Below are positions 7,399 through 63,964 of a DNA stretch of 64,000 nucleotides, piece by piece. The stretch's first letter is position 1. Every line of letters starts with the position of its first letter. Source of the stretch: a bacterium (GTDB lineage: Bacteria > UBA10199 > 2-02-FULL-44-16 > JAAZCA01); contig JBAZOP010000002.1 of NCBI GenBank assembly GCA_041648665.1, positions 50,262 to 114,261 of the forward strand, in the 5' to 3' direction. The notes beneath the pieces were generated by a model. That model ran no database searches. It was not told where the DNA came from and was given only the letters and a program-made list of their open reading frames with translations. The translations under genes were made by a program, and so were the position numbers.

Positions 7399-8478
7399 TC
7401 ACCCAGGAGTATAACCGCCGCTGGCGCGTTTGTCAACAGGTAAAACGCCTGGTTCCAGCGCACACGTGTGCGCCCCCTCCCCAGCGGGCCCCCACCCCAC
7501 GTCCAGCGGCTCCGCAGGTGGCCGGTACTCGCCCGCGTCCCGCCCGGCCGCGCGCCCCCGCTTAGCCCCCCCGGGGCCCGGGGCCAGGAACAGCCGCCAG
7601 AACCCCCCCACGAGGGCCTCGATGCTGGGCGCCGGGGCCAGCCGGCCCTGCGTGGTGGCCGCCACCGCCTCCCACCGCCCCACCGCGGCCCCCACCGTCC
7701 GCGCCACCAGCGCCTCCCCGTGCGCCCCCACCAGCGCCGCCACGCGCGCCCGGGTCCGGGGTGCCCACGCCGGCTCCGCCGCCACAGCGGGGCCGTAGCG
7801 GGCCTCCAGCGCAGCCACGTACACCGCCCGGATCCGATCCACCGCCCCCGGATCCCCCTCCCCTCCCTCGCTGCTGCCTTCTTCGATCTCCGTTTCGAGA
7901 TCGATCGCGCGCGCTACGCGCGGGGGGGGGATCTGTTCCTGTTCCTGTTCCTGTTCCTGTTCCTGGATCGGGGATGGCGTCCCGATGCCATCCGGTATGC
8001 CATCCGGTATGCCATCGAGAAGGCATCGCGCATGGCATCCGGAAGGCATCCGGAACGCCTTCCTGAAGGCTTTCAGGAAGGCAGGGGAGAGCCCCTCGCA
8101 CAAGGCTTCCAACAGGTGGAAAAAACTGCCCTTTAGCGGGCTACTGGGCAGCTCATCGAACGCCCGCGCCCACGATTTCAGCGCGTTCAGACTATTGGGC
8201 GTGTTGTACCGCAGGAAGTGCGGCAGCAGCACGACCTGGGCGTGCTCGTCGTACAGGGCGAACCCCTGCGCTTCGGCCTCCCGGAACGCGGCGATGTAGC
8301 GATCGAAGGGCCAGCGCTTCTCCGCCGCCAGCGCCTCCAGGCTGGCCTTGTACAGGCCGAACGGCGACGAGAGCGGCGTGGTTAGCAGGTGCAGGAAGAC
8401 CAGCTGGCAATCATCCGAGGCAAAGGGGAACTTGTCGTCGTTCCAGAGCAGGCAGTGCACCGTGCGGTACCGGCTCAT
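7399..8478 (-). CDS. putative replication initiation / replisome-organiser-like protein with internal repeat linker
   Basis: The N-terminal domain HCLLWNDDKFPFASDDCQLVFLHLL resembles phage replication-organiser N-domains. A DGIPDGIPDGIG and EQEQEQEQEQ linker follows. The C-terminal tail is translated across the promoter and palindrome, so the true 3' end is uncertain. Start at MSRYRTV overlaps the RHH stop as ATGA. Confidence 0.4.
   Translation of the reverse strand: MSRYRTVHCLLWNDDKFPFASDDCQLVFLHLLTTPLSSPFGLYKASLEALAAEKRWPFDRYIAAFREAEAQGFALYDEHAQVVLLPHFLRYNTPNSLNALKSWARAFDELPSSPLKGSFFHLLEALCEGLSPAFLKAFRKAFRMPSGCHARCLLDGIPDGIPDGIGTPSPIQEQEQEQEQEQIPPPRVARAIDLETEIEEGSSEGGEGDPGAVDRIRAVYVAALEARYGPAVAAEPAWAPRTRARVAALVGAHGEALVARTVGAAVGRWEAVAATTQGRLAPAPSIEALVGGFWRLFLAPGPGGAKRGRAAGRDAGEYRPPAEPLDVGWGPAGEGAHTCALEPGVLPVDKRASGGYTPG
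7403..7440 (-). promoter_or_regulatory. promoter, TTGACA, 17 nt, TATACT (conserved motif family)
   Basis: CTGTTGACAAACGCGCCAGCGGCGGTTATACTCC on the minus strand. The palindrome GCGCACACGTGTGCGC lies about 15 nt upstream of the -35 box. Confidence 0.5.
7933..7962. repeat. (CTGTTC)x5 hexanucleotide tandem repeat (encodes EQEQEQEQEQ on the minus strand)
   Basis: Read directly from the sequence. Lies inside the putative replication gene. Confidence 0.8.
7985..8017. repeat. 12-nt tandem repeat ATGCCATCCGGT, about 2.7 copies (encodes DGIPDGIPDGI)
   Basis: Read directly from the sequence, adjacent to the hexamer repeat. Confidence 0.75.
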
Positions 8479-8687
8479 GCTCCACCCCCCGGCGTGCACA
8501 CGTGTTCGCTCGGTTGCCCGGGATCCAGGTCCCGCAGGGTGCCCGCCTGCGCCTCGCGCTCGAACGCCTCATTGACCAGGGCCGACATCAGGTCCTGCAT
8601 GTTGACGCCGCGCACGGCGGCGAGCAGCTTCAGGCGCATCCGGGCTTCCGCGCCCAGGTGCACCGCCTTCCGATCATCGCTCGGCAT
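8475..8687 (-). CDS. ribbon-helix-helix (Arc/CopG-like) DNA-binding protein
   Basis: MPSDDRKAVHLGAEARMRLKLLAAVRGVNMQDLMSALVNEAFERE shows a beta-strand followed by two helices. SD GGAGGG sits 6 nt upstream. It is the first gene of the RHH-replication operon and diverges from the IS. Confidence 0.55.
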   Translation of the reverse strand: MPSDDRKAVHLGAEARMRLKLLAAVRGVNMQDLMSALVNEAFEREAQAGTLRDLDPGQPSEHVCTPGGGA

Positions 8688-8884: not shown

Positions 8885-10115
8885 TTGACTTTCATCTGTT
8901 CATATGGGACTCTTGCATTGTGAGACGGACAATCATCATCGCGCTTGAGCCAGCCAACGAGCAGCTTGCTGCACTCACGGAGACCTGCGACCTGTTCACC
9001 GAGGTCTTCAACGCCGTCTGCACAGGCGGGTGGCAACACGCCGAAAAGAACGGGGTCCGCCTCCACCACGCCTTCTACCGGCCCCTCAAGGCCCAGCACC
9101 CGACCCTCGTGAGCGACCTGCATGTCCAGGCCCGCGTCAAAGCTACGGAGGCTATCCGAAGCGCGTTGGCCCTCAAACGCAAAGGCAAGAAAGTCTCCTG
9201 CCCGCACTCCACCTCTTGCCCCCCGCGCTACAACCTGCACACCTTCAAGATCGACTGGGCTTCCCGCACCGTGCGCCTGTCCACTACGGCGGGGCGCCAG
9301 ACCATCCGGTTCGCCGTCCCCGTTCACGCGGAGCGGTACGCCGAGCATCCAGTGGACACTGCCGATCTCGTCTGCTGCGAAGGTCGTTGGGCCATGCACG
9401 TCTCCGTCACCGTGCCTGCGCCCGCCGTCGATCCCGTCAATGACGTGGTGGGCGTGGACCTCGGGCTGGCCCAGCCAGCCGTCACGTCCAACAACCAGTT
9501 CCTGGGCAAAAAGGCATGGCGCTCTATCGAGAACCGGCTCTTCAAGCTGAAGCGCAGGCTGCAAGAACGAGGAACCAAGAGCGCCAAGCGCCATCTCAAA
9601 AAGATCCACAAGTCGCAAGCCAGGTTCCGCAGAGATTGCGACCACGTGCTCTCCAAGAAAGTTGTCCAGGCTTGCCCCGCTGGCGGCACGATCGTCTTGG
9701 AAAACCTGACCGACATCCGCAAGCGGGCACGGGCCAAGAGCAACACCGAAGCCAAGCGCCGCCTTCACGGGTGGTCCTTCGCGCAGATCAAGATCTTCAT
9801 CGCGTACAAAGCCGAGGAACGGGGTTGTACGGTGGCCGGGGTCGATCCCCGGCATACCTCGCAACGATGCTCTCGCTGTGGACACACGGCGAAGAACAAC
9901 CGCCGCTCCCGCGCCGTGTTCAAGTGTCGGAAGTGTGGATTTTCCCTCCACGCCGACTTGAACGCAGCTCGCAACATCGCGGCCAAGTACCAGACCCACG
10001 TCGGCATGCCCGATATGGGTGGGCACCCTGTCAACGTGCCTATCGCGGGAGTGGGTGAACTCGTTCATTCAGCTACCTGCAAGCCGCCCGCTTTAGCTGG
10101 CGGTCGTTGACGTAG
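8885..10115 (+). mobile_element. IS200/IS605-family TnpB-only insertion (IS1341-like); ends not defined
   Basis: Carries the intact TnpB gene, has lower GC than its flanks, and the CTGTTGAC promoter-like motif sits at its 5' side. Its 3' end overlaps the convergent gene 10073..10810. Confidence 0.5.
8920..10110 (+). CDS. tnpB: TnpB (OrfB) RuvC-like RNA-guided endonuclease, IS200/IS605 family
   Basis: RuvC-I VVGVDLGL, RuvC-II TIVLENLTD, zinc finger CSRCGH...CRKCG, RuvC-III HADLNAARNIA. All catalytic D/E/D residues are present. Confidence 0.8.
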   Translation: MRRTIIIALEPANEQLAALTETCDLFTEVFNAVCTGGWQHAEKNGVRLHHAFYRPLKAQHPTLVSDLHVQARVKATEAIRSALALKRKGKKVSCPHSTSCPPRYNLHTFKIDWASRTVRLSTTAGRQTIRFAVPVHAERYAEHPVDTADLVCCEGRWAMHVSVTVPAPAVDPVNDVVGVDLGLAQPAVTSNNQFLGKKAWRSIENRLFKLKRRLQERGTKSAKRHLKKIHKSQARFRRDCDHVLSKKVVQACPAGGTIVLENLTDIRKRARAKSNTEAKRRLHGWSFAQIKIFIAYKAEERGCTVAGVDPRHTSQRCSRCGHTAKNNRRSRAVFKCRKCGFSLHADLNAARNIAAKYQTHVGMPDMGGHPVNVPIAGVGELVHSATCKPPALAGGR

Positions 10116-10810
10116 CAGCGGCGCTGGAGCAGGTGGATGGGCTCCCCAAGTGCCGCCGGCTCCCCCGCCCGGGCCTGCACGGCCTCCTCGCTGAGCCCAG
10201 CGTAGAGGTCCAGAGACAGCAGCCGCTGGTCGATGCCAGCGCGGACCTCCCGCTGGTCGGCGATGACGGCCTCCACCGGGATCGTCTCGGCATGCATCAG
10301 CCGCCCGAGCCGCTCCGAGGTGTCCCGGATTTGCTTGTACAGGGCGGGGATCTCCTCCGCCTTGGCGCGCTCCAGGGCCTGCCGGTAGGCGGGGATCGGC
10401 TCGTCGCCGCGCAGGGCCAGCGCCGCGGCCTCCCCGCCGCCACCCTCCTCGGGGAGCGCCCGCCCGGGGGCCACGCCAAGCCGCAGCATGAGCGCCTCCA
10501 GGTCGCCAGTCAGCGCCCGCAACTGCTCCTTCTGCCGGGCGCCCGCGGCCCGGAGGACCGCTGGACCGTCGGGGCACAGCGTGCACGATGCCGCCAAGGC
10601 ATCGTAACTAATGCGCGTCACATACTCACCGGCGCCATCCTCGATGACACCACGCAGCAGGACGTAGTTGCTGCCTAAGCGGACGACGCAACCGAGCCAG
10701 CGCTGCCCATCGTCCGGATCCATTACCCAGTACCACTCGCCCACCAGTGGCAGGTCTTCCGGCCGCTCGCGTGTTTTTGTAGGCGCGCACACCTTGTCCA
10801 AGTTGCTCAT
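10073..10810 (-). CDS. hypothetical protein
   Basis: Start MSNLDK with SD GGAGG, directly downstream of a perfect TTGACA-17-TATAAT promoter. Confidence 0.5.
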   Translation of the reverse strand: MSNLDKVCAPTKTRERPEDLPLVGEWYWVMDPDDGQRWLGCVVRLGSNYVLLRGVIEDGAGEYVTRISYDALAASCTLCPDGPAVLRAAGARQKEQLRALTGDLEALMLRLGVAPGRALPEEGGGGEAAALALRGDEPIPAYRQALERAKAEEIPALYKQIRDTSERLGRLMHAETIPVEAVIADQREVRAGIDQRLLSLDLYAGLSEEAVQARAGEPAALGEPIHLLQRRCYVNDRQLKRAACR

Positions 10811-10859: not shown

Positions 10860-10896
10860 TTCAATTATAACCAGTCGGTATGCGTTTGTCAACATA
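10860..10896 (-). promoter_or_regulatory. consensus sigma70 promoter, TTGACA, 17 nt, TATAAT (conserved motif family)
   Basis: ATGTTGACAAACGCATACCGACTGGTTATAATTGA on the minus strand. Confidence 0.6.
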
Positions 10897-12594
10897 TTAG
10901 GATCGCGTCGTGACGCGCAGAATTTCACCGCTGCGGAGGCCGACCACGGTGTCCCCGGCCGCGACCAGCCGCAACCCGGCGACCGCGGGATCGGCAATGC
11001 GACGGCCGACCTGCGCCCCGCGCTCGGGGAAGAGGGACAGCTCGCCGCCCTCGTCGATCAGGGCCACCACGCCCCGGGCAAGTCGGGCGACGTTCAGCGC
11101 GCCATGACCCACGTTACGATCGGCCCAGCGCAGCTGGGCGCCCGCACTGCCCACCGCGTACACGTAGCGGTCGACGCTGCCCCCGCGCTCGGCCAGGACC
11201 AGCAGGGCGCGCCCCCCGGCCCAGGCGTCCACCACGCGGGCGCCGTCCAGATCCGCCAGCCGCACCTGGTCGCTGCGGCCCGGGGCCGGGAACACGTTCG
11301 CGTACCACGCGCCCAGCACGCTCTGGAGGGCCACGCCGGGGTACAGCTGCGTCGCCAGGGGCGCCACGTTGGCCACCACGCGCGGGGCGGCAACGAGCTG
11401 CCCCCCCAGGCGCGCCAGCTGCACCTCGACCACGTGCTCGCCATCGTGGGCGTACAGGCGACCCTCGGCGGTGGTCAGCGCCGCAGCCTGCACGACGAGG
11501 GGCACCTCCGCCCCGCCATCCAGGGCGCGCATCCGGAGGCGCTGGCGGTCGATCCAGGCGTAGAGCGGCGTGCCGTCGGGGGCCCATGCCAGGGATCCCG
11601 CGCCATCCACGGGGACCTGCCGAGGAGGCCGGGTGCCGTCCCATAGCGTCACCGCGCACCCCGCTGGTCCCCGGACCAAAGCTGCCTCCGCGCCGCCGGG
11701 GATCGCCACGTACTCCAGCACATCCCCATCCACGACATGGAGCACGCGCAGGTCCACGTGCCCGGCGCTCGAAGCAGGCCGCAGCCCACGCATGGGCGCG
11801 CTGGCTTGGGCGCTGGCGGGCGGGGGATCGCGGCGGCCGGCCTCGAACACAGCGCGGTACCAGTCGCGATAGGCGCTCGGGATCACGTCTAGGGGCGGCA
11901 CCAGCGGGGGCACCGACACGGCGGCGTTGAACACCGAGAGGTTGGCGCGCATGCGATCGGGCAGACCACGCACCGTGGGGTGGCGCCCCTTGTAGGGGTG
12001 GATGCCAACGAACAGCTGGAAGGTCACGATGCCCCAGGAAAACCAGTCGGATCCTGTGGTCCAGCAGCCCTGGGCGTGCCAATCCCGCACGCTCTCCATC
12101 AGGGCGGTGGCCGGGAAGCGAGGCGTCTGGTAGGAGTCCACATCGATGAAGCACACCTCCTCGAAGGTGGCGGTGGCCAGGAAGTTCATCTCGTTGGCGT
12201 CCACCACCAGCACGCGGGCGGCGTGCACTGCCTCCATGCTGGCGCGCATGCGCTGCACGAGGCGCAGCACCGTGGAGCCATCCAGGCCGTGCCGCGCCTG
12301 GAATGCCCGGGTGAAGAGCTGGCAGAGCGGGAAGGCATCCGGAACACGGCGCATGCTGTAGCCGACCGGGCGCCCCCGGCCGTCCAGCAGCACGCGCTGC
12401 GGCCGGATCACGCTGTCGTCAGCGATCGCGCTCAACTCGTCGATCTTAGCCTCGGGGACCATGCGCTCGGGCTTCAGGTAGACCTTGAACGCCTCGTCCC
12501 CGTGAGCGTAGACCTGCCCCTCGCCGCCCGCGCCCAGGAAGTTGGCCTGGGTCAGCACGACCTCGCCGCCCCCCCGCATTCGGTACTTCGTCAT
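10897..12594 (-). CDS. Ser/Thr protein kinase-like protein with C-terminal repeat/beta-rich domain
   Basis: Gly-loop LGAGGEGQVY, AFKVY lysine, a D-x4-N catalytic loop (VVDANEMN), DVD in the DFG position, and DWFSWGIVTFQLFVGIHPY as the subdomain IX equivalent. Last gene of the vWA-PP2C-kinase triad. Confidence 0.6.
   Translation of the reverse strand: MTKYRMRGGGEVVLTQANFLGAGGEGQVYAHGDEAFKVYLKPERMVPEAKIDELSAIADDSVIRPQRVLLDGRGRPVGYSMRRVPDAFPLCQLFTRAFQARHGLDGSTVLRLVQRMRASMEAVHAARVLVVDANEMNFLATATFEEVCFIDVDSYQTPRFPATALMESVRDWHAQGCWTTGSDWFSWGIVTFQLFVGIHPYKGRHPTVRGLPDRMRANLSVFNAAVSVPPLVPPLDVIPSAYRDWYRAVFEAGRRDPPPASAQASAPMRGLRPASSAGHVDLRVLHVVDGDVLEYVAIPGGAEAALVRGPAGCAVTLWDGTRPPRQVPVDGAGSLAWAPDGTPLYAWIDRQRLRMRALDGGAEVPLVVQAAALTTAEGRLYAHDGEHVVEVQLARLGGQLVAAPRVVANVAPLATQLYPGVALQSVLGAWYANVFPAPGRSDQVRLADLDGARVVDAWAGGRALLVLAERGGSVDRYVYAVGSAGAQLRWADRNVGHGALNVARLARGVVALIDEGGELSLFPERGAQVGRRIADPAVAGLRLVAAGDTVVGLRSGEILRVTTRS
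10903..10925 (-). terminator. possible hairpin terminator (CGCGTC-AC-GACGCG inverted repeat) after the kinase gene
   Basis: The inverted repeat sits immediately 3' of the kinase stop. No strong U-tract. Confidence 0.25.
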
Positions 12595-13403
12595 GCGCTG
12601 CCCTCCGCGCGCTCCAGGACCACCGCGCCCATGCTGAGGTCGTCATCGTGGCGCCATCCCCGCTGAGCGGCCTTCCGCAGGAACGCCTGGAGGCGCCGCT
12701 GCACAAACACGCCCTGGAGCCCCTTGAACGCCATCAACTCGCCCACGATCACCTCAGAGGGGATGGGCTGGTGGTCCGCATCCAGGAAGGAGCGCACACC
12801 ATCGCTGAACACAGCCACGACGGCGGCGTCCTCGATGGTCCGCTGGAAGGGCTGCACGCCCCGGCATCGCAGCTCCTCGCCATCCGGGCCACGCGCCACC
12901 CACTCCTCACGCTGCAGCACGGCCGCCATGCGCTGGTCGTCCACGAGGTAGTTGGCGTAGCGAGGGTATCCGTCGGGAGCCTCAACTTCCCAGATCCGCA
13001 GGGCGCCCCCCGGGTCCCGGGCGGCGATCACGCCGTCCCCGGTGCACGAGACGAAGGCCGAGGATCTTTGGCCCAGGGCGAAGACCAACGTGGCGTCCAT
13101 CGCCAATGGGTCCAGATTCCAGCACGTTTTCTGGAACAGACGGCGCCGGAGGTCGATCACCTCCATGGCGCCCCAACACCACCACGCGGGATCTGCCATG
13201 GAAGAAATGCGGCCTATTCCAACCTCGCAGCTCAGGGTGAGCAGCCGCGCGCCAACGTCCGTGTCGGGGCTGCCCGAGCAGCCGTCCGAGACGATGGCGT
13301 AGGGGCGGCCCTCTTGCGTCCGTCCGCACCGGGCGTAGTCCTGGCAGACCCGGTGGGCCGCCCCGATGACGTAGGCGCTGTCCGCGTTCGCCCGCATCTC
13401 CAT
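12591..13403 (-). CDS. PP2C-family Ser/Thr protein phosphatase
   Basis: Start MEMRANAD overlaps the vWA stop as TGATG. SDGCSG and SDGVRSF motifs, and a C-terminal DDLSMGAVVL typical of PPM phosphatases. The upstream track extension is GC-rich low-complexity sequence. Confidence 0.65.
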   Translation of the reverse strand: MEMRANADSAYVIGAAHRVCQDYARCGRTQEGRPYAIVSDGCSGSPDTDVGARLLTLSCEVGIGRISSMADPAWWCWGAMEVIDLRRRLFQKTCWNLDPLAMDATLVFALGQRSSAFVSCTGDGVIAARDPGGALRIWEVEAPDGYPRYANYLVDDQRMAAVLQREEWVARGPDGEELRCRGVQPFQRTIEDAAVVAVFSDGVRSFLDADHQPIPSEVIVGELMAFKGLQGVFVQRRLQAFLRKAAQRGWRHDDDLSMGAVVLERAEGSA

Positions 13404-14155
13404 CAGAGGCTGAAGGACATCGGCTGCGAGGGGCCGCCGGTTCCGAGCGCCTGGGACTGGGCGCTGATGCTCTTGCTCACGAAGGCCGCCAACTTGGCCA
13501 GCGTCCGCGCGCTCGCGTCCTTGGTCTCGACGTACTGTCCGATCCCAGCCTCCTGCTGGAAGGCGACCAGGGCGCCGCTCACCTGCGGGTCGTTGCCCAC
13601 CCCGACGCCCACCAGGATGGACACCTGGCTCTCCAGCGCCTCGGACTGGATGGCGCGCTCCAGCTGCGCCCGCACCTGCCCCGGGCCCCCCGCGGAGGCG
13701 TTGTCGCAGCCGTCGGAGATGATCACGGCCACCCCGTTCACGGCGTAGTCGCTGCCGACCAGGGTACGCGCGTAGTCGGCCTGCGCGTGCACGGCGTGCT
13801 CCGCCGCGTCGAACAGCGCCGTCATGCCGCCGCACGACAGGCAGCCGCGGTAGTCGTCGAGGTTGCAGTTGGCGAGCAGCTTGAAGCCGTGCACCTCCCG
13901 CATGTGGTCGTTGAAGGTGATCATCCGCAGCATCAGGTTGTCGGCCCGGGGAGACAGCTTGCAGGCGTTGACCACCTCGCGGATGGCCTGCTCCATATCC
14001 GCAGCGTAGGGCCCCACGGACCCGCTCACGTCCACGGCCAGCGTGACCAGGGTGTACTCGGCCGCCCCCAGGGCGTCCAGGCGCGTGGCGCTGTACCCGA
14101 ACGCGGTGGTCGGGAGCGCGCGCTCCTCCATGGACAGGTCGTTGATCTTCGGCAT
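13403..14155 (-). CDS. von Willebrand factor A (vWA, TerY-like) domain protein
   Basis: MIDAS motif LAVDVSGSVG. SD GAGGGAA. Start at MPKINDL (M137 of the track ORF). Confidence 0.65.
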   Translation of the reverse strand: MPKINDLSMEERALPTTAFGYSATRLDALGAAEYTLVTLAVDVSGSVGPYAADMEQAIREVVNACKLSPRADNLMLRMITFNDHMREVHGFKLLANCNLDDYRGCLSCGGMTALFDAAEHAVHAQADYARTLVGSDYAVNGVAVIISDGCDNASAGGPGQVRAQLERAIQSEALESQVSILVGVGVGNDPQVSGALVAFQQEAGIGQYVETKDASARTLAKLAAFVSKSISAQSQALGTGGPSQPMSFSL

Positions 14156-14187: not shown

Positions 14188-14991
14188 CTAGCGCAGCACG
14201 TCCACCGTGGTCGACGTCTGCATCCCCTTCGCCGTCATTTCGGCGACGAAGTCCTCTTGGAGCTTCTCGAACCCGGGCACCGGGCTGAGAGCGTCGGTGA
14301 GCAGCACGAACTTCTGGACGTAGTCCGCGCTGCTGAACCCGGCCGCCACGTCCCGGATCGTGTTGGCGACGCAGTGGCTGCCCGCCTCGCCCGCGATCAG
14401 GATCAGGTCCGCCTCCTCCAGCGCCTGGATGAGGCGCAGGTTGATCTGGGTCGACGGATCTGCCGGGTCCGGCACCTCGGCCTTCACCCCGGAGTAGTGC
14501 TCCGTGAACAGGTTGCTGCCCTTGCTCACGAAGTCGATCACGCCCGGGCCCGCGGCCGCCCAAGCGTTGAGCGCCTCCAGCACGGCCGGCACCAGGGTGG
14601 CGCCCGGGCTACCGATCAGGCAGTGCGGGGGCCAGATGCACAGCGGGTACCGGTGTCCGGCCTCCAGCGCGCGCACGTAGTCGAGCATGCGGCGCGTGAG
14701 GCTGGGGATGCACGGCGTCCAGGCGCCGCTCTCCACGTCCTGTGGCGTGATGATCGTGAACGGCGTCGGCGGCTGGCCGTCGGGCCCGCGCCACATGGCC
14801 GGGTGCGCCACGTCCAGCAGGTGATGCTGGTCGAGCGTCGCGTGGATGTCGTGCAGCCGCGCCCCCAACCGCTGGACCATGGCGGCCACGCGCTGCATGT
14901 CCTCCGCGGCGCCAGGCACGAACAGCGCCCCAGTAGGGTCGCAGAAGTCGTGCTGCGCGTCGATCAGGAACAGGTCCACCTTCTTCGTCAT
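14188..14991 (-). CDS. pncA: nicotinamidase PncA (isochorismatase/cysteine-hydrolase family)
   Basis: DLFLIDAQHDFCDP matches the isochorismatase N-motif. DIHATLDQHH are metal-binding His. IWPPHCLIGSPGA matches the PncA signature WPPHCV. Catalytic Cys in GEAGSHCVANT. Confidence 0.7.
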   Translation of the reverse strand: MTKKVDLFLIDAQHDFCDPTGALFVPGAAEDMQRVAAMVQRLGARLHDIHATLDQHHLLDVAHPAMWRGPDGQPPTPFTIITPQDVESGAWTPCIPSLTRRMLDYVRALEAGHRYPLCIWPPHCLIGSPGATLVPAVLEALNAWAAAGPGVIDFVSKGSNLFTEHYSGVKAEVPDPADPSTQINLRLIQALEEADLILIAGEAGSHCVANTIRDVAAGFSSADYVQKFVLLTDALSPVPGFEKLQEDFVAEMTAKGMQTSTTVDVLR

Positions 14992-15003: not shown

Positions 15004-15753
15004 TCAGGCCGGCTCCCGCCGGAAATGCGGCGGCACGCAACGCTTGTGCGCGCTCACCGTGTGCAACTCGTCGATCTTCCGCGCCACCTCCACCTCGATG
15101 GCCTCCCCGCGCAGGTAGGCGTCGATGGCGCCGTACACGTTGGACGTTCCCAGGATGCCCCCCAACTCTTCTTGGTCGGTCTGGCCGATCCAGAGGCCAG
15201 CCGTCGGGGGACGATCTACCAGCGCCTCCGGCAGCCCAAGCAGCCGCCCCAGCTGGCGCACCTCGCCCTTGTCGAACGCGAGGAGCGGCTCCAGGTCCAC
15301 CCCGTGATCGCCGTACTTCGTGGCGTACCCAATGTACGCCTCGGCCGCGTTGGTCGTGCCCACCACGAGGCCACCACGGTGGTTCGCCACCGCGTAGAGG
15401 GCCACCATGCGCAGGCGCGCCTGCATGTTGCCGCAGGTCAACGCGTTCAGCAGGGGATCACCTGTTGCGAAGCGCAGCTCCTTCTCCATCGCCTCGTATG
15501 CGCTGCGGATGTTCACCGGGAGCGCGTCCGCGGTGCACCCCAGGTGCTTCACCAGCGTGTTCGTCCACCGCACATCCGGGTCGGCCCCACACGGCATCCG
15601 GACCAGGACCGTGTGATCGCGGCCTACCGCGCGCACACACAACGCAGCCACCACGGAGGAGTCCACCCCCCCGCTGATGCCCACCACGGCGCGGTGTAGG
15701 CCGCTTAGCAGATGCTCCCGCAGCCAGCCGCACAGGGCATCCACGTCGCCCAT
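15004..15753 (-). CDS. nadE: NH3-dependent NAD+ synthetase NadE
   Basis: PP-loop GISGGVDSS. The C-terminal half of the track ORF is the real gene. The ATG lies 2 nt after the PncB stop. Confidence 0.75.
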   Translation of the reverse strand: MGDVDALCGWLREHLLSGLHRAVVGISGGVDSSVVAALCVRAVGRDHTVLVRMPCGADPDVRWTNTLVKHLGCTADALPVNIRSAYEAMEKELRFATGDPLLNALTCGNMQARLRMVALYAVANHRGGLVVGTTNAAEAYIGYATKYGDHGVDLEPLLAFDKGEVRQLGRLLGLPEALVDRPPTAGLWIGQTDQEELGGILGTSNVYGAIDAYLRGEAIEVEVARKIDELHTVSAHKRCVPPHFRREPA

Positions 15754-15755
15754 CG

Positions 15756-16928
15756 TCACGCACCCACGAGTCCCAGCGCCTGCTTGCATCGCTCCACCTC
15801 CTCTGGATCTCCCGAGTGCTTCGTGGGCACATCGGACAGCTTGACCGCGGGGCGCCACGGATTGGTCGGCCACGCCCGCGCCCGCGTCATCTTGATAACC
15901 ATGTTGAGGGGCCGCACCCCCGGGACGTCGCAGGTCAGCGACGTGCCAAGGAGGAACCGCGCCCCGATGCGTCCCTCCATCGCTGACCGAATCGCCTGGA
16001 CGTCGTCCAGGCCCAGGCCGTCGGAGAAGACCATGACCTTCGACCGTGGGTCGATGCCGAGCCGCTCGTAGTGGGCGATCACCTGCTGCGCGCACAGGAG
16101 CGGATCCCCAGAGTCCTGCCGCACGCCGTCGTAGATCCGCGCCCGGAGCCCGTTGAAGGCCCGCAAGAACACCGGCGTCGTGTAGGTGTCCAGGAGCCCG
16201 ATCCCGAGCGCTCCCCGGTAGGTCTCCACCCAGCGGTCGAGCGCGATCGCCGTCGCCTCCTCGTAGCCGAGGATTGCGCCATGGTACATGGTCCACTCGT
16301 GCGCCACGGTGCCCACGCAGGGGAGCCCCATCTCCAGTGCCATGCCCACGTTGCTGGTGGGGATGTTCAGGGCCGCGAGGACCCGCTGGTGTATCTCCCG
16401 CGAGAAGCGGCGCCGCGTGCCGCCCTCGACCACCGGCAGTTGATCCCGGCGGATGAGCAAGCCCTTGGCCGCCGCCCGGTTCACTACGTCCGCGTCGCGG
16501 GCGGGCAGGCTGCCCCCGTGCGACAGCAGGTGGTAGCGCTCGGAGATCAGCGCCATCAGCGGAACCTCCCAGAGCACGGTGCGCAGCCATGGACCGCGCA
16601 CGATCAGACGCAGACGGCGCTCCTCGTCCAAGCTGCACTCCACGATCTCGGACGGGTCGAAGCGGTAGCGCGCCAAGAAGGAGCGGTACCACGGCTGCAC
16701 CGGCAGGACGCGCCCCAGGCCGTCAACCTCGGACTCGGTGAGCGCTGGAGCCGCGACCAGCTCCTCATCGATCCAGCTGCGCAGCTGGGCAAAGGCGGCA
16801 GGCCACGCCACAGGCGTCCGCACGATCAGCTCGTACTCCGCCTCCGCCTGGGGGTAGTGCTGCCCGATGGCTTGCTGCATCGAAAACTTGTAGAGGTCGG
16901 TATCGAGCAAGTGCATCACACGCTCCAT
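15756..16928 (-). CDS. pncB: nicotinate phosphoribosyltransferase (PncB/NAPRTase family)
   Basis: N-terminal LLDTDLYKFSMQQA is the NAPRTase signature. 390 aa. Confidence 0.75.
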   Translation of the reverse strand: MERVMHLLDTDLYKFSMQQAIGQHYPQAEAEYELIVRTPVAWPAAFAQLRSWIDEELVAAPALTESEVDGLGRVLPVQPWYRSFLARYRFDPSEIVECSLDEERRLRLIVRGPWLRTVLWEVPLMALISERYHLLSHGGSLPARDADVVNRAAAKGLLIRRDQLPVVEGGTRRRFSREIHQRVLAALNIPTSNVGMALEMGLPCVGTVAHEWTMYHGAILGYEEATAIALDRWVETYRGALGIGLLDTYTTPVFLRAFNGLRARIYDGVRQDSGDPLLCAQQVIAHYERLGIDPRSKVMVFSDGLGLDDVQAIRSAMEGRIGARFLLGTSLTCDVPGVRPLNMVIKMTRARAWPTNPWRPAVKLSDVPTKHSGDPEEVERCKQALGLVGA

Positions 16929-16957
16929 TCCCGTTCGTTCATGCCTCTACGCCTGAT

Positions 16958-17536
16958 TCACCTGATGGACGCCGTGGCCCCGGCCTCGGCCAGGAGCCTC
17001 ACCGCCCGATCCGCCTCCTCCTTCGACACGCCCATCATCACCGTCGAAGGGGCGCAGTCGGTGAGGTCTTTGGAGTCCTTCAGCCCCAGGCCGGTCAACT
17101 CCCGGATCTCCTTGATGACGTTGATCTTCCTTTCGCCCACCATCTGCAAGATCACGTCGTACTTCTGCTCGGCAGATCCCGGGTGCAACCCCGCGTCCAC
17201 CTCTTTCAGGAACGCAGGCACATCGACAACGCTGCCACGCAGGTCGGCGATGGCCGCGAGGAGGCGCAGGTGATCGATCGGATCCGGCATTCGCAACCTG
17301 TCGAGGATGTCGGCGACACGCTCCCTCTGCTCGTCATCCTCCATCGCCTCCTTGGCGAGGATGCTTCTCTGTTCCTCCAAATCGTAGATTTTCTCGCGGA
17401 ACGCATCGTTCTCCGCCCGGAGTTGCGGGAGATGCTCCCGGAGGGTCGCGATCTCCGCTTCCATCTCGTCCGCCGTCTGCTGCTTCTTCTTCTTCTCGGC
17501 CATGGCATCCTCCTGTTTCGTTGTTTTGCTACCCAC
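16958..17536 (-). CDS. coiled-coil protein with ribosomal protein bL12 (L7/L12) C-terminal-domain homologue
   Basis: The C-terminus KINVIKEIRELTGLGLKDSKDLTDCAPSTVMMGVSKEEADRAVRLLAEAGATASI aligns with the L7/L12 CTD ([47 protein letters not shown]). The N-terminus is charged coiled coil. Confidence 0.6.
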   Translation of the reverse strand: MGSKTTKQEDAMAEKKKKQQTADEMEAEIATLREHLPQLRAENDAFREKIYDLEEQRSILAKEAMEDDEQRERVADILDRLRMPDPIDHLRLLAAIADLRGSVVDVPAFLKEVDAGLHPGSAEQKYDVILQMVGERKINVIKEIRELTGLGLKDSKDLTDCAPSTVMMGVSKEEADRAVRLLAEAGATASIR

Positions 17537-18876: not shown

Positions 18877-18881
18877 GCGGA

Positions 18882-40335: not shown

Positions 40336-42555
40336 CTACGCCGCCAGGTTGCTGATCGCCAGCGACCCCAGCGTGATGATCCGGTTGGCGGCCGGCACGA
40401 GGTTGCCCTCCGGATCGATATCCGAGGGCCCCGTGATGGCGATGTTCGTGTAGACCATGCCGACCGCGGCCTCCTCCACCACTCGGTGCAGGTCCGACAG
40501 GTACAGCGGCTCGTTGAAGTCGCGGCCCTTCAGCAGCTCCACGATGGCCGCCCGCGCCTTGGCCGCCTCCTCCTCGTACACGTAGGCTGGCCCAACGAGC
40601 AGCTCGACCTCGATCTGGGCCGGCACCAGCGCAGCGGCACCGTTTACCACCTGCACCTGCTGCGTGACCTCCTTGATGCCGTCCAGGTACGCCTGGAGTC
40701 CCATGATGAGCCCAACCGATGGCGCCACGTAGTTGCCATCGGCGTCCAGCGACAGGATGGGCACCTGCACGTAGTTGCTCAGGCAGTCGTCGCTGAACAT
40801 CTGGGCGATGCGGACGCGCATCGCATCGGTCTTGACCACGATGTTGGCCTGCAGATCCTCCGCTTTGCCGTCGATATCCGCTGCCTCAGCGCCCAGCGTG
40901 ATCACCAGCGTCTGCAAGCTCGTGGCTGCCGCATCCACGGCCACCTTGATCGCCGGGATCGAGGTGTCCGGCGCCACTGGCGCGTCGTTCGTGAGGGCGT
41001 CCAGCGTGGGGTTGAGCAGGGTGCTGACCGTCAAGTCCAGCATGCCCCCCGCCGCCTGGACCGCGGCCAGGGCCGTCGCCCCCTGCCCCGTAATGCCAGT
41101 CGCCTGGCCGATGGCCGACGTCAGCTCATCAAGTACGTGCGTGCGCGCCGCGCTCGGCGCGAAATTCGCATCATCACTGACGTACGCGTACAAAACCTCC
41201 AACGCCGTCTTCTGGTTCGCTGACGTATCGTTGACGACGGCGATGGCTGTCTCGGCCGTCGTTCCCTGCGCCCGGGCAGCCTGCACGTTGACCTTGGCGC
41301 TCGTAACCCATCCCACGAGGCTGTCCGCCCCCAAAGCCCGCAGATTCTCCAGGGCAGCCATCTGCGCCTGGATCGTGGCCACGTACGTGCTCATGGTGGT
41401 GGCCCCGGTGGCCAGATCCGCCTCCAGGGCAGCCACAGCCGCGACGTACGCTACCAAGTACGCCTCCACATCCTCGACCAGGTTGTTGAAGGTCAGGTCC
41501 GCGTAGGTGCCGCGGGGGTTGAACGCGTACGCCTTGGCCACCGACCCGTACAATGGGTCCACGAAGCTATTGGACAGGGCGTCGTAGTCCAGGGCCGTGA
41601 TGGCCGCGCCGCGCGCAGCGAACGACAGCGGGGCCAGGCGCCGGGCGTGGTCGGTCTCCTCGGGGTCCGTGCCGCCCGTAGGGGCCACCTCGTGGTCCAC
41701 CTCGAACGTGACCTCGGCCCCGCCAATGGAGAGCACGTCGATGCTGCTGCTGATGCTGTGCGCCTTGGGCTCGTTGCCCTTGATCCCGTCGATCACGACG
41801 AAGCGGAGCTTGACCTCCGCACCCGTAGGCGGGATGGCGCCCGCGATGCCATCGCCGAACCGCACGAGGGGCGGCTGCGCCGTGTAGTCCACCTCGAACT
41901 GCTCGTCGTTGGCGTAGGTGAGGAAGGTGCGCTCCTCCCACTCCAAGCCGTCCACCCAGGCTTCCACGCTCAGATCAGCCAGGTAGCGATCCTCGGGCAC
42001 GCTCGACAGCGGGTAGGTCTGGTTGGCCGCCCCGTTCGCCGTGAACGTCAGCAGGAACGTGTCGCCCTGGCGCACGCTCACTGTCCGCTGGGTTCCTGGA
42101 GCCAACGCCAGGGGCTCAACGAGCGCCGCGTAGGACTCGTAGACGAGCCCCGCCGGCCCCTGGTACCGCCACCGCGCGGGCATCGTGAAGGGCCCCGTGG
42201 TGCCATCGGGGAAGGTCAGCGAGAGTTCCACGCTGGCCGCCGCGGCCGGACGCATCTTGTAGCCCAGCTGCCGCACGATCCTGTTCGCGGCGCTCGGCGT
42301 GCGGGCTGTCTCCAGGAAGCAGTCCGACGCCGTCCGGTCCAGGTACCACTGGAGCTGCGCCGTGGCGTAGGCCATCATCTCGATGAGCATGATGCCCTGC
42401 GTCGTAGTGGCGTAGTCGTTGTACACCGTGGTATAGACCGCCTTCAGCCGCCGCAGCAAGTCGTCGAAGATCGACGCGTAGTCGCGGGCCGCGTACTTCA
42501 CCGTGTTGAGCGGCGCCCGGTCAGCTACCAGCGGCTCGTATGGATCGGTTGCCAT
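40336..42555 (-). CDS. baseplate J-like protein (gp6/gpJ/Mu gp47 family)
   Basis: N-terminal ARDYASIFDDLLRRLKAVY...GIMLIEMMAYATAQLQWYL is the typical Baseplate_J signature. Confidence 0.6.
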   Translation of the reverse strand: MATDPYEPLVADRAPLNTVKYAARDYASIFDDLLRRLKAVYTTVYNDYATTTQGIMLIEMMAYATAQLQWYLDRTASDCFLETARTPSAANRIVRQLGYKMRPAAAASVELSLTFPDGTTGPFTMPARWRYQGPAGLVYESYAALVEPLALAPGTQRTVSVRQGDTFLLTFTANGAANQTYPLSSVPEDRYLADLSVEAWVDGLEWEERTFLTYANDEQFEVDYTAQPPLVRFGDGIAGAIPPTGAEVKLRFVVIDGIKGNEPKAHSISSSIDVLSIGGAEVTFEVDHEVAPTGGTDPEETDHARRLAPLSFAARGAAITALDYDALSNSFVDPLYGSVAKAYAFNPRGTYADLTFNNLVEDVEAYLVAYVAAVAALEADLATGATTMSTYVATIQAQMAALENLRALGADSLVGWVTSAKVNVQAARAQGTTAETAIAVVNDTSANQKTALEVLYAYVSDDANFAPSAARTHVLDELTSAIGQATGITGQGATALAAVQAAGGMLDLTVSTLLNPTLDALTNDAPVAPDTSIPAIKVAVDAAATSLQTLVITLGAEAADIDGKAEDLQANIVVKTDAMRVRIAQMFSDDCLSNYVQVPILSLDADGNYVAPSVGLIMGLQAYLDGIKEVTQQVQVVNGAAALVPAQIEVELLVGPAYVYEEEAAKARAAIVELLKGRDFNEPLYLSDLHRVVEEAAVGMVYTNIAITGPSDIDPEGNLVPAANRIITLGSLAISNLAA

Positions 42556-61819: not shown

Positions 61820-63964
61820 CTAACCAATCGAACGTTGGCTGAACCGGAAACAAATATATTCCGCCGGCTTGTTGCAGGCGATGCCCACGTCGCAGTAGAC
61901 GATGCCCTGGTCGACTGTGTTCTGCGGGTTGTTGGACCGGTTGCAGATCACGAAGAAGGCCTCCTCGGGGGTGCTGCCGGCGAAGTAGCCGCCCTGGTAG
62001 AGGCCGGACAGGAAGTTGGTCAGCTGGGTGGTGATCGCGTTCCAGAGCGGCGGCCCGTTGTTCTTGAAGACGTGGATGTGGGTGGCGTTGAACACGCTCT
62101 TCTCGACGAACATGAACAGCCGCCGCATCTGGATGTAGGGCCACTCGCCACCGGCCACGTCCAGGGAGCGCACGCCCCAGACCACGCGGCCAGTGATGGG
62201 CCACTCTACGAGGCAGTTGATCTTGTTCTCGGTGCAGTAGCCCACCTGGGCCTGCGTGAGCGTGTACTCCAGGCCCTGCGACCAGGACAGGGATCCGTCC
62301 TCCATGCCGCCGGGCGCCTTGCCCACGTTCTTGTTGCTGTCCGTGCGCGCGTACACGCCCGCGACGTGGCCGCCCGGGGGCACGTCCACCACGGTGGAGG
62401 TGATCGGGTCGCGCACCTTGATGTGCGGGTAGTAGATGGCGCCGAAGGAGCTGTAGCGGTTGAGCGTGAAGCGCTTCCAGGTCACGGCCTCCTGGTACTC
62501 CAGGCCGAACGGCACCGCGCAGATGACGAACTTGTCCTTCATCAGCTCAGCGTAGGTGAGCAGCGCGTCGATGACGTAGGGGTCGGTCTGGAAGTCGGCC
62601 GCCACCAGCTGCATCAGCTCGTCCACCTTGCCGAAGGCGTACAGGCCGCGCATGTCGGCCGCCAGCAGCGGGCTCACGATGTCGTCGCTGTCGGTAGCGG
62701 ATCCATCCAAGCCGCCGGTCAGCAGACCCTCGATGGACGAATCCGGCTCGGCGTAGTAGTCCGCCAGCTCGCCGCCCGTGAGGGAATCGGCACCGAACAC
62801 GTCCAGCGGCGCCGTGATGCCCAACGCGGTGAGCGTACCCGCGGGCACCGGGTTGGAGAAGGTCAGCTCGGCTGTCGCCCCGGTCAGCAGCGTGCGGGTG
62901 GTCTGCGTGCCGTCGCCGTTGTCATCCACCACCACGACCCCGGGCAACCCGGCCTCGACCAGCGCCTCGTATTCATCCGCGCGCACCGCTTCGATGTCGT
63001 CCACGTCGCCGGTGCCATTCACGGGCGGGTTAAGCCAATCCAGCAGCGCGTCCGCCGTCCCGCCAGCGACGTGGGCCACGGTGGAGTTGAGCCCCCACAC
63101 GTCGGACGTGACGCGCATGTTGACGCCGTCCAGGGACGCGAACGCCCCGGGCACCTGCGCGTTGACCGCGTTGATCGCATCCGCAACCGCCCACACGCCA
63201 CCCAGCGGCGGCGTGAACGTCACCGTGCGCTGCGTCCCGCCGATGTCCAGGATCGTCGTCAGGCCATCCAGCAAGAGGCCCGCACCCCACACCGTCGACT
63301 CGGTGAGGTACCCCTGCGTGGCGTTGAACGTGATCGTGGCGGGGGCGCCCAGGCCGTTTGCGTCGAGATCGAAGCTGCAGCCAGGAGTGAGGACCCACGG
63401 CCCCGCCGTCGAGGTCTTCGATGCGGCCGTGGCCGTGGTGAACGTGCCGGCCGGCCCGGCCGCGGGGTCGCCCGCGATCTTCCAGGTCAGCACGATCTCG
63501 CCGGTGTCGTAGTCGATCGTGTTGGTGCCCGACGTGTTCAGCTCGAACTTGGTCGGGGATCCCACCACCGGAGGCGTCAGCGTGGCCGGGTCGGCGATGC
63601 TCAGCACGCCGTTGCCATCGTCGATCACCGTCACGGGCTGCGCATAGGTGCAATCGATCAGCACCGCGGAGTCCACCACGAATGTGTCAGCCGCTGGCGT
63701 GAGGTCGATCGCGATGGCGCCGGTGGTGTAGGTGATGGTGCCGACGCCGAACCCGCCATAGGTCAGGTTTCCAGCGCCGTCGTCTACCAGCACGCTGCCA
63801 GGGCCGCCGCCCGTGAGGTTGGCGGTGATCAGCACGCTGCCCGCCACCAGCGCCGCCGGGGTCCACGTCAGGTTGGGCACCGCCGTGATCGGGTTGGTGC
63901 CCGTGCCGATGCGGGTGAGGTGCTCGATGAAGCGGAACTCGGCCACGAACGTGGTCGGGAACAC
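61820..63964 (-). CDS. tail sheath protein (N-terminus may lie beyond the window)
   Basis: The C-terminal domain ...VICAVPFGLEYQEAV...GVYARTDSNKNVGKAPGG...VVWGVRSL... is typical of contractile sheath proteins. Confidence 0.7.
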   Translation of the reverse strand: MFPTTFVAEFRFIEHLTRIGTGTNPITAVPNLTWTPAALVAGSVLITANLTGGGPGSVLVDDGAGNLTYGGFGVGTITYTTGAIAIDLTPAADTFVVDSAVLIDCTYAQPVTVIDDGNGVLSIADPATLTPPVVGSPTKFELNTSGTNTIDYDTGEIVLTWKIAGDPAAGPAGTFTTATAASKTSTAGPWVLTPGCSFDLDANGLGAPATITFNATQGYLTESTVWGAGLLLDGLTTILDIGGTQRTVTFTPPLGGVWAVADAINAVNAQVPGAFASLDGVNMRVTSDVWGLNSTVAHVAGGTADALLDWLNPPVNGTGDVDDIEAVRADEYEALVEAGLPGVVVVDDNGDGTQTTRTLLTGATAELTFSNPVPAGTLTALGITAPLDVFGADSLTGGELADYYAEPDSSIEGLLTGGLDGSATDSDDIVSPLLAADMRGLYAFGKVDELMQLVAADFQTDPYVIDALLTYAELMKDKFVICAVPFGLEYQEAVTWKRFTLNRYSSFGAIYYPHIKVRDPITSTVVDVPPGGHVAGVYARTDSNKNVGKAPGGMEDGSLSWSQGLEYTLTQAQVGYCTENKINCLVEWPITGRVVWGVRSLDVAGGEWPYIQMRRLFMFVEKSVFNATHIHVFKNNGPPLWNAITTQLTNFLSGLYQGGYFAGSTPEEAFFVICNRSNNPQNTVDQGIVYCDVGIACNKPAEYICFRFSQRSIG

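Follow-up and report, generated by a model that had tools for sequence, protein, structure and literature searches.

Why should a phage genome hold a protein kinase, a protein phosphatase, and a vWA-domain protein in one unit with enzymes of NAD+ metabolism? The question is raised by a 64,000-nt stretch of contig JBAZOP010000002.1 (GenBank assembly GCA_041648665.1, positions 50,262–114,261; hereafter the window), assigned to a bacterium of the GTDB lineage UBA10199. Three minus-strand genes, which occupy positions 10897–14155 of the window, encode in order a vWA protein, a PP2C phosphatase, and a Hanks-type Ser/Thr kinase. A preliminary description made from the sequence alone had likened this triad to TerY-P, known from tellurite-resistance neighborhoods and as an antiphage defense system, and all of its coordinates and motifs hold. 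Here, we report that the triad makes up the three distal genes of a conserved module of four, which encode a nicotinamidase-like protein, a vWA protein, a phosphatase of the PP2C type, and a kinase–propeller protein of the YegI family, and that in this phage the module lies within a six-gene Preiss–Handler NAD+ salvage operon.

Organization of the Operon

The following features make up the operon and its downstream boundary.

15756–16928, minus strand: PncB, nicotinate phosphoribosyltransferase, 390 aa, the first NAD-salvage gene of the cassette (Pfam NAPRTase, 137.7 bits; NAPRTase_N, 82.5 bits)
15004–15753, minus strand: NadE, NAD synthetase, about 249 aa (Pfam NAD_synthase, 190.3 bits)
14188–14991, minus strand: nicotinamidase-like (PncA-like) isochorismatase-fold hydrolase, 267 aa (profile search against PDB nicotinamidases, conserved residues)
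13403–14155, minus strand: TerY/YegL-type vWA protein, 250 aa (metal ion-dependent adhesion site [MIDAS], AlphaFold2 fold, labels of homologs)
12591–13403, minus strand: PP2C-family Ser/Thr phosphatase, 270 aa (Pfam PP2C_2)
10897–12594, minus strand: whole kinase gene, 565 aa (open reading frame and domains)
11809–12594, minus strand: Hanks/eukaryotic-type Ser/Thr kinase domain of the YegI family, residues 1 to about 262 (AlphaFold2, Foldseek, hhalign)
10897–11757, minus strand: C-terminal beta-propeller of the kinase, about 285 aa, WD40-like with roughly seven blades, plus stop codon (AlphaFold2, Foldseek)
10864–10892, minus strand: sigma-70 consensus promoter TTGACA-17-TATAAT (12/12 consensus match, 5 nt past the kinase stop codon)

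The genes for PncB, NadE, and the nicotinamidase-like protein lie upstream of the triad in the same orientation, with gaps of 2–32 nt; the NadE ATG, for example, is 2 nt beyond the PncB stop codon. The order in the window is PncB, NadE, nicotinamidase, vWA, PP2C, and kinase, and the triad is indeed the distal end of an operon that opens with NAD-salvage genes. The vWA start codon at 14155 is preceded by a Shine–Dalgarno sequence, AGGCGAGGG. Translational coupling within the triad was confirmed: the vWA stop codon TGA (13405–13403) shares bases with the PP2C start codon (TGATG), and the PP2C stop codon shares bases with the kinase start codon (ATGA).

The consensus promoter at 10864–10892 is unique in 11 kb, where 0.8 would be expected for weaker matches. 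Because it begins 5 nt past the kinase stop codon, the kinase is the last gene of the unit and the next transcription unit begins there. The promoter sits in a short AT-rich island of a genome of 68% G+C. Upstream of the operon, a terminator-like hairpin is found at 18879–18860.

Predicted Properties of the Encoded Proteins

Searches with the single kinase sequence against Pfam, NCBIfam, and the PDB returned nothing useful, and no Pfam match in particular. About half of its full-length homologs have a precomputed PF00069 match, a profile of the family retrieved Ser/Thr kinases exclusively from the PDB, and the full-length protein matched a Myoviridae kinase in BFVD (E = 9.5e-29). The AlphaFold2 model (predicted local distance difference test score [pLDDT] 92) shows a bilobed kinase domain (residues 1–260) joined to an all-beta propeller (residues 280–565, about 28 strands). 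Using Foldseek, we found that the best PDB match of the whole model is the kinase plus WD40 arrangement of LRRK2, that the kinase domain matches CDPK, NIK, IRAK4, and PKMYT1 (probability 1.0), and that the propeller matches those of WDR5, PALB2, and the clathrin terminal domain. The entire protein is modeled as kinase plus propeller; its model contains no hydrophobic helices, and no Cys-pair motif was found in the translation past the kinase domain.

The motifs GAGGEGQVY, D-x4-N, and HPY are present in the kinase, and in a multiple alignment of 57 sequences G23, G24, K37, D132, N137, D151, D153, D183, W184, H199, and P200 are invariant. The kinase fold on which the preliminary description depended is thus accompanied by the catalytic Lys (K37) and Asp residues (D132 and D151). 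We also considered a small-molecule kinase of protein kinase-like fold and rejected it on the basis of the subdomain IX/X motifs (DWFSWG and HPY) and the kinship to YegI described below.

The phosphatase was the only member of the triad whose own sequence scored above a Pfam cutoff (PP2C_2, 38.2 bits vs. a cutoff of 24). Its metal-binding motifs D40-G41, D123-G124, D201-G202, and D254-D255 are invariant in 36 homologs. The vWA protein remained below threshold (20.8 bits vs. 23.8), and neither its family profile nor that of the PP2C found a match in the PDB at E ≤ 0.01. Its AlphaFold2 model (pLDDT 85) matches integrin I-domains with probability 1.0, and ArnB (8s05) is among the structural matches. 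The MIDAS residues D42/S44/S46/T112/D148, which include the DVSGS motif, are invariant in 35–43 homologs. The protein also matches phrog_7371, and its homologs are labeled “YegL” by JGI and “vWA domain-containing protein” by NCBI; we take YegL to correspond to the TerY-type vWA COG. The C-terminal helix and tail are rich in Ser, and in the family alignment S227, S229, and S234 are invariant and S231 and S243 nearly so. Motifs, profiles, and folds therefore agree on a vWA–PP2C–kinase triad in the TerY-P gene order, and as judged from these alignments, all three signaling proteins keep their catalytic or metal-binding residues.

For the gene directly upstream, a profile of 36 homologs was compared with the PDB, and the top matches were all nicotinamidases, including yeast Pnc1 (2h0r, 5e-15) and PncA of P. 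horikoshii, M. tuberculosis, and Acinetobacter. D54, H56, K157, and C207 are invariant and D11 and H63 nearly so; D11, K157, and C207 make up the Asp–Lys–Cys triad, and D54, H56, and H63 the Asp/His metal site. JGI labels the homologs “nicotinamidase-related amidase.” An insert of about 60 aa sets the protein apart from solved PncA structures. The conserved residues point to a nicotinamidase as the predicted activity of this upstream partner.

Conservation of the Module in Viral Genomes

To assess how constant the gene grouping is, we examined loci anchored on the kinase and on the vWA protein. The kinase-anchored scan of IMG/VR gave 85 viral loci, many of them on contigs of 200–600 kb. All open reading frames of 92 kinase-anchored loci (80 IMG/VR viral loci and 12 others, 3 of them bacterial) were then scanned with iterative hidden Markov models built from the window proteins. 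PP2C was found in 88 of the 92, vWA in 79, the nicotinamidase-like protein in 75, PncB in 34, and NadE in 25. Nicotinamidase–vWA–PP2C–kinase is the dominant order, and eight loci have exactly the six-gene order of the window.

The vWA-anchored loci, gathered from IMG/VR by an alignment-based scan, gave an even more uniform picture: an adjacent nicotinamidase is present in all 79, PP2C in 76/79, and the kinase in 74/79. At least three of the five kinase-less loci (L189, L199, and L200) reach the contig end with little or no sequence downstream of vWA. Whereas the preliminary description had rightly recognized NAD genes upstream and had counted the nicotinamidase among them, apart from the triad, these loci place it in the same unit as the triad. 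After collapse at 90% identity, 108 non-redundant viral lineages remained, of which 98 contain the complete tetrad, with median gaps of 50 bp between nicotinamidase and vWA and 70 bp between PP2C and kinase. PncB lies within 8–9 kb of the tetrad in 41 of these 108 lineages, and NadE was recorded in 32.

Such a grouping in more than 100 non-redundant lineages is far beyond chance. The general mosaicism of phage accessory regions is all that could be cited for a fortuitous adjacency of three unrelated accessory genes; the surveys already refute it, as start and stop codons overlap and the order is fixed in more than 100 lineages that share 30–45% identity, and we consider its probability negligible. 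We are highly confident that the nicotinamidase–vWA–PP2C–kinase tetrad and its linkage to NAD genes are real. The idea of a superinfection-exclusion module or counter-defense decoy that follows the NAD genes by accident is not borne out, for no trait of the family is better conserved than its position beside NAD genes.

Clustering of all open reading frames in the collected loci revealed further recurrent neighbors. Members of an NrtR-like family were present in 93 loci, a cytidylyltransferase of NadD type in 27, and Macro and NADAR in 18 each; a calcineurin-like phosphoesterase and the RNA-repair genes RtcB, Thg1, and RlaP recurred as well. The recurrent families identified in about 250 loci comprise NAD, ADP-ribose, and RNA-repair genes; Ter and restriction genes are not among them, although no search was aimed at these.

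The RNA-repair genes (RtcB, Thg1-like, and RlaP) are located near the tetrad in phage contigs, for instance at 16258–17478 in locus L229, 4402–5235 in L190, and 10243–11250 in L075, and in L002–L004 the kinase is flanked by RtcB and a CCA-adding enzyme. Countermeasures to NAD+ depletion and to tRNA cleavage thus seem to be assembled in the accessory region.

Occurrence in Bacterial Chromosomes and in an Archaeal Bin

Full-length homologs of the kinase (about 40% identity) were also detected on contigs of 0.5–4 Mb from Acidobacteriota and Capsulimonadaceae, as the last gene of the order 267-aa protein, 247-aa protein, PP2C_2, and kinase. These operons lie directly after an NrtR-type Nudix regulator, beside genes for ADP-ribosylglycohydrolase (ARG), NADAR, and PARG, or beside NAPRTase. 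Compared with the collinear acidobacterial set, the window proteins show identities of 55% (nicotinamidase-like), 59% (vWA), 39% (PP2C), and 42% (kinase). With one genome taken per species, a relative is encoded in 127 of 185,579 species, the carriers being Blastocatellia/Pyrinomonadaceae, Armatimonadota, Myxococcota, Desulfobacterales, Thiotrichales, and a few others. The four-gene operon was recovered in bacteria wherever the contig allows, and NrtR is adjacent in 29 of 80 loci.

Two further observations were made. In Acidobacteriota, a gene for a 740-aa protein with several methyltransferase-family matches follows the kinase in 20 of the 80 genome loci (e.g., L008, 7794–10016); the window lacks it, as do almost all viral loci. 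In addition, a contig of a metagenome-assembled genome of Promethearchaeota (L150, DAOUVJ010000012.1, 31 kb) carries a complete tetrad, whose kinase is 28% identical to that of the window. This contig is binned with an Asgard archaeon and could be a virus or a misbinned contig.

The composition of these neighborhoods bears on the possibility that the tetrad serves the reversal of, or signaling by, ADP-ribosylation rather than NAD+ resynthesis. The vWA protein would chaperone ADP-ribosylated proteins, the nicotinamidase would steer ADP-ribosyl cycles by clearing nicotinamide, an inhibitor of sirtuins and ADP-ribosyltransferases, and phosphorylation would set the direction. Next to the module one repeatedly finds Nudix-type regulators and genes for ARG, PARG, NADAR, and Macro proteins, and vWA chaperones have been predicted in systems centered on ARG or Nudix regulators that act against viral ADP-ribosylation (PMC9503650). 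However, PncB and NadE, which make sense only for NAD+ synthesis, are the commoner partners in phages and the sole ones in the window, and the published ARG systems mention no kinase, PP2C, or nicotinamidase. We regard this explanation as quite improbable.

Comparison with TerY-P and Other Known Systems

As outlined in the passages that PMC11090510 devotes to it, TerY-P (Anantharaman et al. 2012) unites in one operon a TerY-like vWA protein, a PP2C, and a Ser/Thr kinase with a C-terminal zinc ribbon; it was proposed to be a phosphorylation-dependent switch and associates with Ter genes, CoCoNuT/McrBC, and other restriction systems. According to the same passages, an OB fold replaces the zinc ribbon in a version that is a proven defense system (Gao et al. 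2020). The window triad shares with TerY-P a TerY-like vWA protein with a MIDAS, an adjoining PP2C, a Ser/Thr kinase, and the gene order. In contrast, its kinase ends in a beta-propeller, neither the zinc ribbon of the classical form nor the OB fold of the defense form, and the constant partner of the phage triad is a nicotinamidase.

We also compared the proteins with PADLOC, in a copy that was not confirmed to hold TerY-P models. With this limit, no model named TerY was matched by the window proteins (E ≤ 0.1), nor by 57 kinase and 35 vWA family members (E ≤ 0.01), the window PP2C being the sole PP2C scanned. PADLOC v2 presumably contains the TerY-P models. Members of the kinase family weakly matched the generic defense Ser/Thr kinase models mad6, PD-T4-6, MkoA, and PglW, with a best E of about 3e-8. 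As an analogy in architecture the label TerY-P is apt; as a statement of family membership it is wrong, and the assignment of the triad to the tellurite-locus or the defense system is not upheld.

These results also bear on the reading preferred in the preliminary description, in which the triad would be a stand-alone TerY-P-type antiphage or superinfection-exclusion system whose kinase, on detecting a rival infection, sets off an abortive or excluding response, the NAD genes being unrelated neighbors. Such a role would agree with the three-domain architecture and order, given that the OB-fold version of TerY-P is described in that source as proven defense (PMC11090510), as well as with the weak matches to defense kinase models and the fact that exclusion genes are common in phage accessory regions. 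Nevertheless, the C-terminal domain differs, the triad and the 35–57 family members scanned match no model named TerY in a copy whose TerY-P content is unconfirmed, and no effector domain (nuclease, pore, or NADase) is present. Moreover, the nicotinamidase is an all but obligatory partner and NAD genes are pervasive ones, and the bacterial copies lie in NrtR/ADP-ribose metabolic neighborhoods rather than in restriction or Ter neighborhoods, which were not searched for specifically. Taken together, we consider a defense role decidedly unlikely.

The closest characterized relative is the yegL–pphC–(yegJ)–yegI locus of E. coli K-12, which has the same vWA, PP2C, and Ser/Thr kinase order. Experiments have shown YegI to be an active kinase; PphC is its partner phosphatase, and YegL its vWA partner (bioRxiv 10.1101/819920). 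Comparison of YegI with the window kinase family by hhalign gave a probability of 98% (E = 1.2e-13, 28% identity over 245 columns); the motifs GGEGxVY, KIY, DxNxxNF, IDxDS, and HPY are common to both, and Lys-39, Asp-141, and Asp-159 of YegI (10.1101/819920) correspond to K37, D132, and D151. E. coli YegL, like the phage vWA protein, has a Ser-rich C-terminus. On the other hand, YegI crosses the membrane with two helices, ends in a long helical segment where the window kinase family has a beta-propeller, and is without the invariant catalytic-loop Asn of that family. YegL and PphC are only marginally similar to the phage vWA and PP2C families (hhalign probabilities of 28% and 38%, respectively), and the yeg locus contains no nicotinamidase or NAD genes.

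With respect to NAD+ metabolism, phages are known to counter NADase defenses by NAD+ reconstitution, using NARP1 (Adps and Namat), NARP2 (Nampt and Nmnat), or NARP3 (PnuC and NadR) (bioRxiv 10.1101/2024.02.11.579819; PMC13464706), and Preiss–Handler genes, namely pncB–nadD–nadE clusters and pncA, occur in jumbo phages (PMC11662467). The window resembles these in that phage enzymes rebuild NAD+ from breakdown products or precursors. It differs in having PncB, NadE, and a nicotinamidase, none of which is used by NARP1–3, which also have no protein phosphorylation module. We found no kinase, PP2C, or vWA gene beside NAD genes in the Aravind-group survey of NAD+ in viruses, a jumbo-phage survey, the NARP paper, or the jumbo-phage NAD paper. 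Likewise, a literature search for NAD salvage linked to vWA, PP2C, or kinase proteins yielded no description; its coverage did not extend to de Souza and Aravind (2012) on NAD-utilizing pathways, where a prior mention is possible.

A precedent for the suggested mechanism comes from archaea, in which the vWA protein ArnB is toggled by the Hanks-type kinase ArnC and this is reversed by the phosphatase PP2A (PMC12852372, PMC7472852, PMC6509490). ArnA–ArnB, unlike the phage module, governs archaellum expression and has an FHA partner, a PP2A-type phosphatase, and no NAD link. The Arn switch is an analogy of mechanism, not a homologous system.

A Possible Role in Regulated NAD+ Salvage

We lean, by a little, toward the view that the phage uses the module for regulated salvage or reconstitution of NAD+. 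The cassette would turn nicotinamide freed by NAD+-cleaving defenses back into NAD+ in a regulated manner, along a route that may run from the nicotinamidase through PncB and NadD (supplied by the host or encoded elsewhere in the genome) to NadE. This role fits the logic of phage NAD+ reconstitution against NADase defenses and the presence of Preiss–Handler genes in jumbo phages. In bacteria, the corresponding operon may be induced through NrtR upon accumulation of ADP-ribose.

The kinase and PP2C may together form a reversible phosphorylation switch. Its likely target would be the vWA protein, acted on at the cluster of Ser residues that lies in the C-terminal helix and tail, and the vWA protein may in turn bind or gate the nicotinamidase encoded directly upstream in a MIDAS-dependent and phosphorylation-controlled way, with the beta-propeller as a candidate sensor or docking surface. 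In integrin I-domains, the C-terminal helix is coupled to the state of the MIDAS. We propose this phospho-switch because the nicotinamidase gene always neighbors the vWA gene and PP2C mostly neighbors the kinase, because the Ser-rich tail is conserved, and because of this coupling in I-domains; we offer it as a tentative model that is possible rather than probable.

A bolder version, which we hold as a doubtful conjecture, is that the tetrad might be the regulatory core of a fourth, signal-gated phage route of NAD+ reconstitution (a Preiss–Handler-type “NARP”). In this scheme the propeller would respond to what NADase-based immunity leaves behind, be it ADP-ribose, nicotinamide, or a modified protein; the kinase would then activate the nicotinamidase by phosphorylating the Ser-rich tail of the vWA protein, and PP2C would return the switch to its starting state. 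Bacteria would use this device too, under NrtR, which would make it a post-translational control of NAD+ salvage not recognized before.

Several observations weigh against a role in regulated NAD+ salvage or against parts of the switch. The Ser-rich segment of the vWA protein is modeled at lower confidence (pLDDT of about 60–78), and the insert of about 60 aa could alter the substrate of the nicotinamidase-like enzyme. Among NrtR-, NadD-, Macro-, NADAR-, ARG-, PARG-, and YAcAr-like genes, none was found in the 64-kb window, and the lack of the first four is unfavorable to this role. The substrate of YegI was not identified (10.1101/819920). In GenBank phages, the kinase is found in three records, all from uncultured huge phages, and in no cultured phage.

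The closest relatives of the window locus also count here. Locus L253 (8096–9004) has PncB, NadE, an inserted LAGLIDADG homing endonuclease-like gene, nicotinamidase, and vWA, after which the contig ends. L254 (1606–2433) contains the nicotinamidase, two small unrelated genes where vWA and PP2C would be, and the kinase, and in L002–L004 and L013 the kinase occurs alone (L002, 9079–9998); IMGVR_UViG_3300037067_016086 is among the lineages of this last kind. A scan of IMG/VR with the vWA protein found no close relative. The nearest relatives thus form a decay series of the cassette, and gene turnover is concentrated in this part of the genome. Conservation of the triad as a unit in related phages was therefore confirmed overwhelmingly for the wider family but not for the very closest lineage, which keeps the kinase alone or with the nicotinamidase only. 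The retention of the kinase without vWA and PP2C in these relatives means that it must have a vWA-independent function, which argues for additional targets and keeps a role in host takeover alive.

Under such a role, the kinase would mainly act in the manner of T7 gp0.7 and phosphorylate host proteins, for example NADase effectors or NAD-metabolic enzymes, while PP2C and vWA would tune or buffer its activity. Besides the relatives that keep the kinase after the loss of vWA and PP2C, the propeller, a typical protein-docking domain, and the high frequency of the kinase family in large phages are in line with it. Yet orthologous four-gene operons are present in bacterial chromosomes without phage context, so that a purely anti-host role is not ancestral, and the kinase keeps all three partners in 98 of the 108 viral lineages. 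A kinase devoted chiefly to host takeover appears rather unlikely to us.

Phage Context and Neighboring Genes

The module lies within the genome of a contractile-tailed phage. On one side of the cassette are the genes for the tail sheath (61820–63964; phrog_23, 7e-41) and a baseplate wedge protein (40336–42555; 4e-28) along with other tail and baseplate proteins, and on the other side are the replication genes for a DnaD-like helicase loader (7399–8499) and a phosphoesterase/exonuclease. Almost all genes of the window are on one strand, and the identical proteins were located on a 161-kb contig of a metagenome-assembled genome. We rejected the possibility that the module belongs to host flanking DNA, as phage genes flank it on both sides, in agreement with the placement first proposed.

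Several other genes in this region have unusual features.

16958–17536, minus strand: 192-aa phage protein, directly upstream of PncB and in the same operon
8920–10110, plus strand: TnpB-type gene, 396 aa, with OrfB_IS605 and Cas12f1-like TNB domains
7399–8499, minus strand: DnaD-like helicase loader

The 192-aa protein ends in 66 residues that match the C-terminal domain of ribosomal protein L7/L12 (PF00542, 78.8 bits), and a coiled region rich in Lys and Glu comes before them; such a phage-encoded domain could disturb the recruitment of translation factors. The TnpB-type gene is the sole clearly coding plus-strand gene in that part of the phage and overlaps by 38 nt the 3′ end of a 245-aa open reading frame at 10073–10810 on the minus strand. 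It is probably an insertion of the IS200/IS605 family into the phage. The DnaD-like loader has low-complexity runs in mid-protein (EQEQEQEQEQ and GIPDGIPDGI), and the 6–8 kb stretch around it has the highest G+C content of the window (0.75).

Implications

NAD+ depletion is among the commonest outputs of bacterial immunity, and its reversal by phages is a recent and active topic. The phage NAD+ pathways described to date are purely enzymatic; the module, if our interpretation is true, would place NAD+ salvage under a Ser/Thr phosphorylation switch. It spans more than 100 phage lineages, many of them jumbo phages, as well as NrtR neighborhoods in several bacterial phyla. Should it instead prove to be a defense or exclusion device, it would mark the first case in which the output of a TerY-P-like system is a defined small-molecule enzyme. 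The poorly understood TerY-P/YegL–PphC–YegI class gains a concrete metabolic partner, and its mechanism becomes directly testable.

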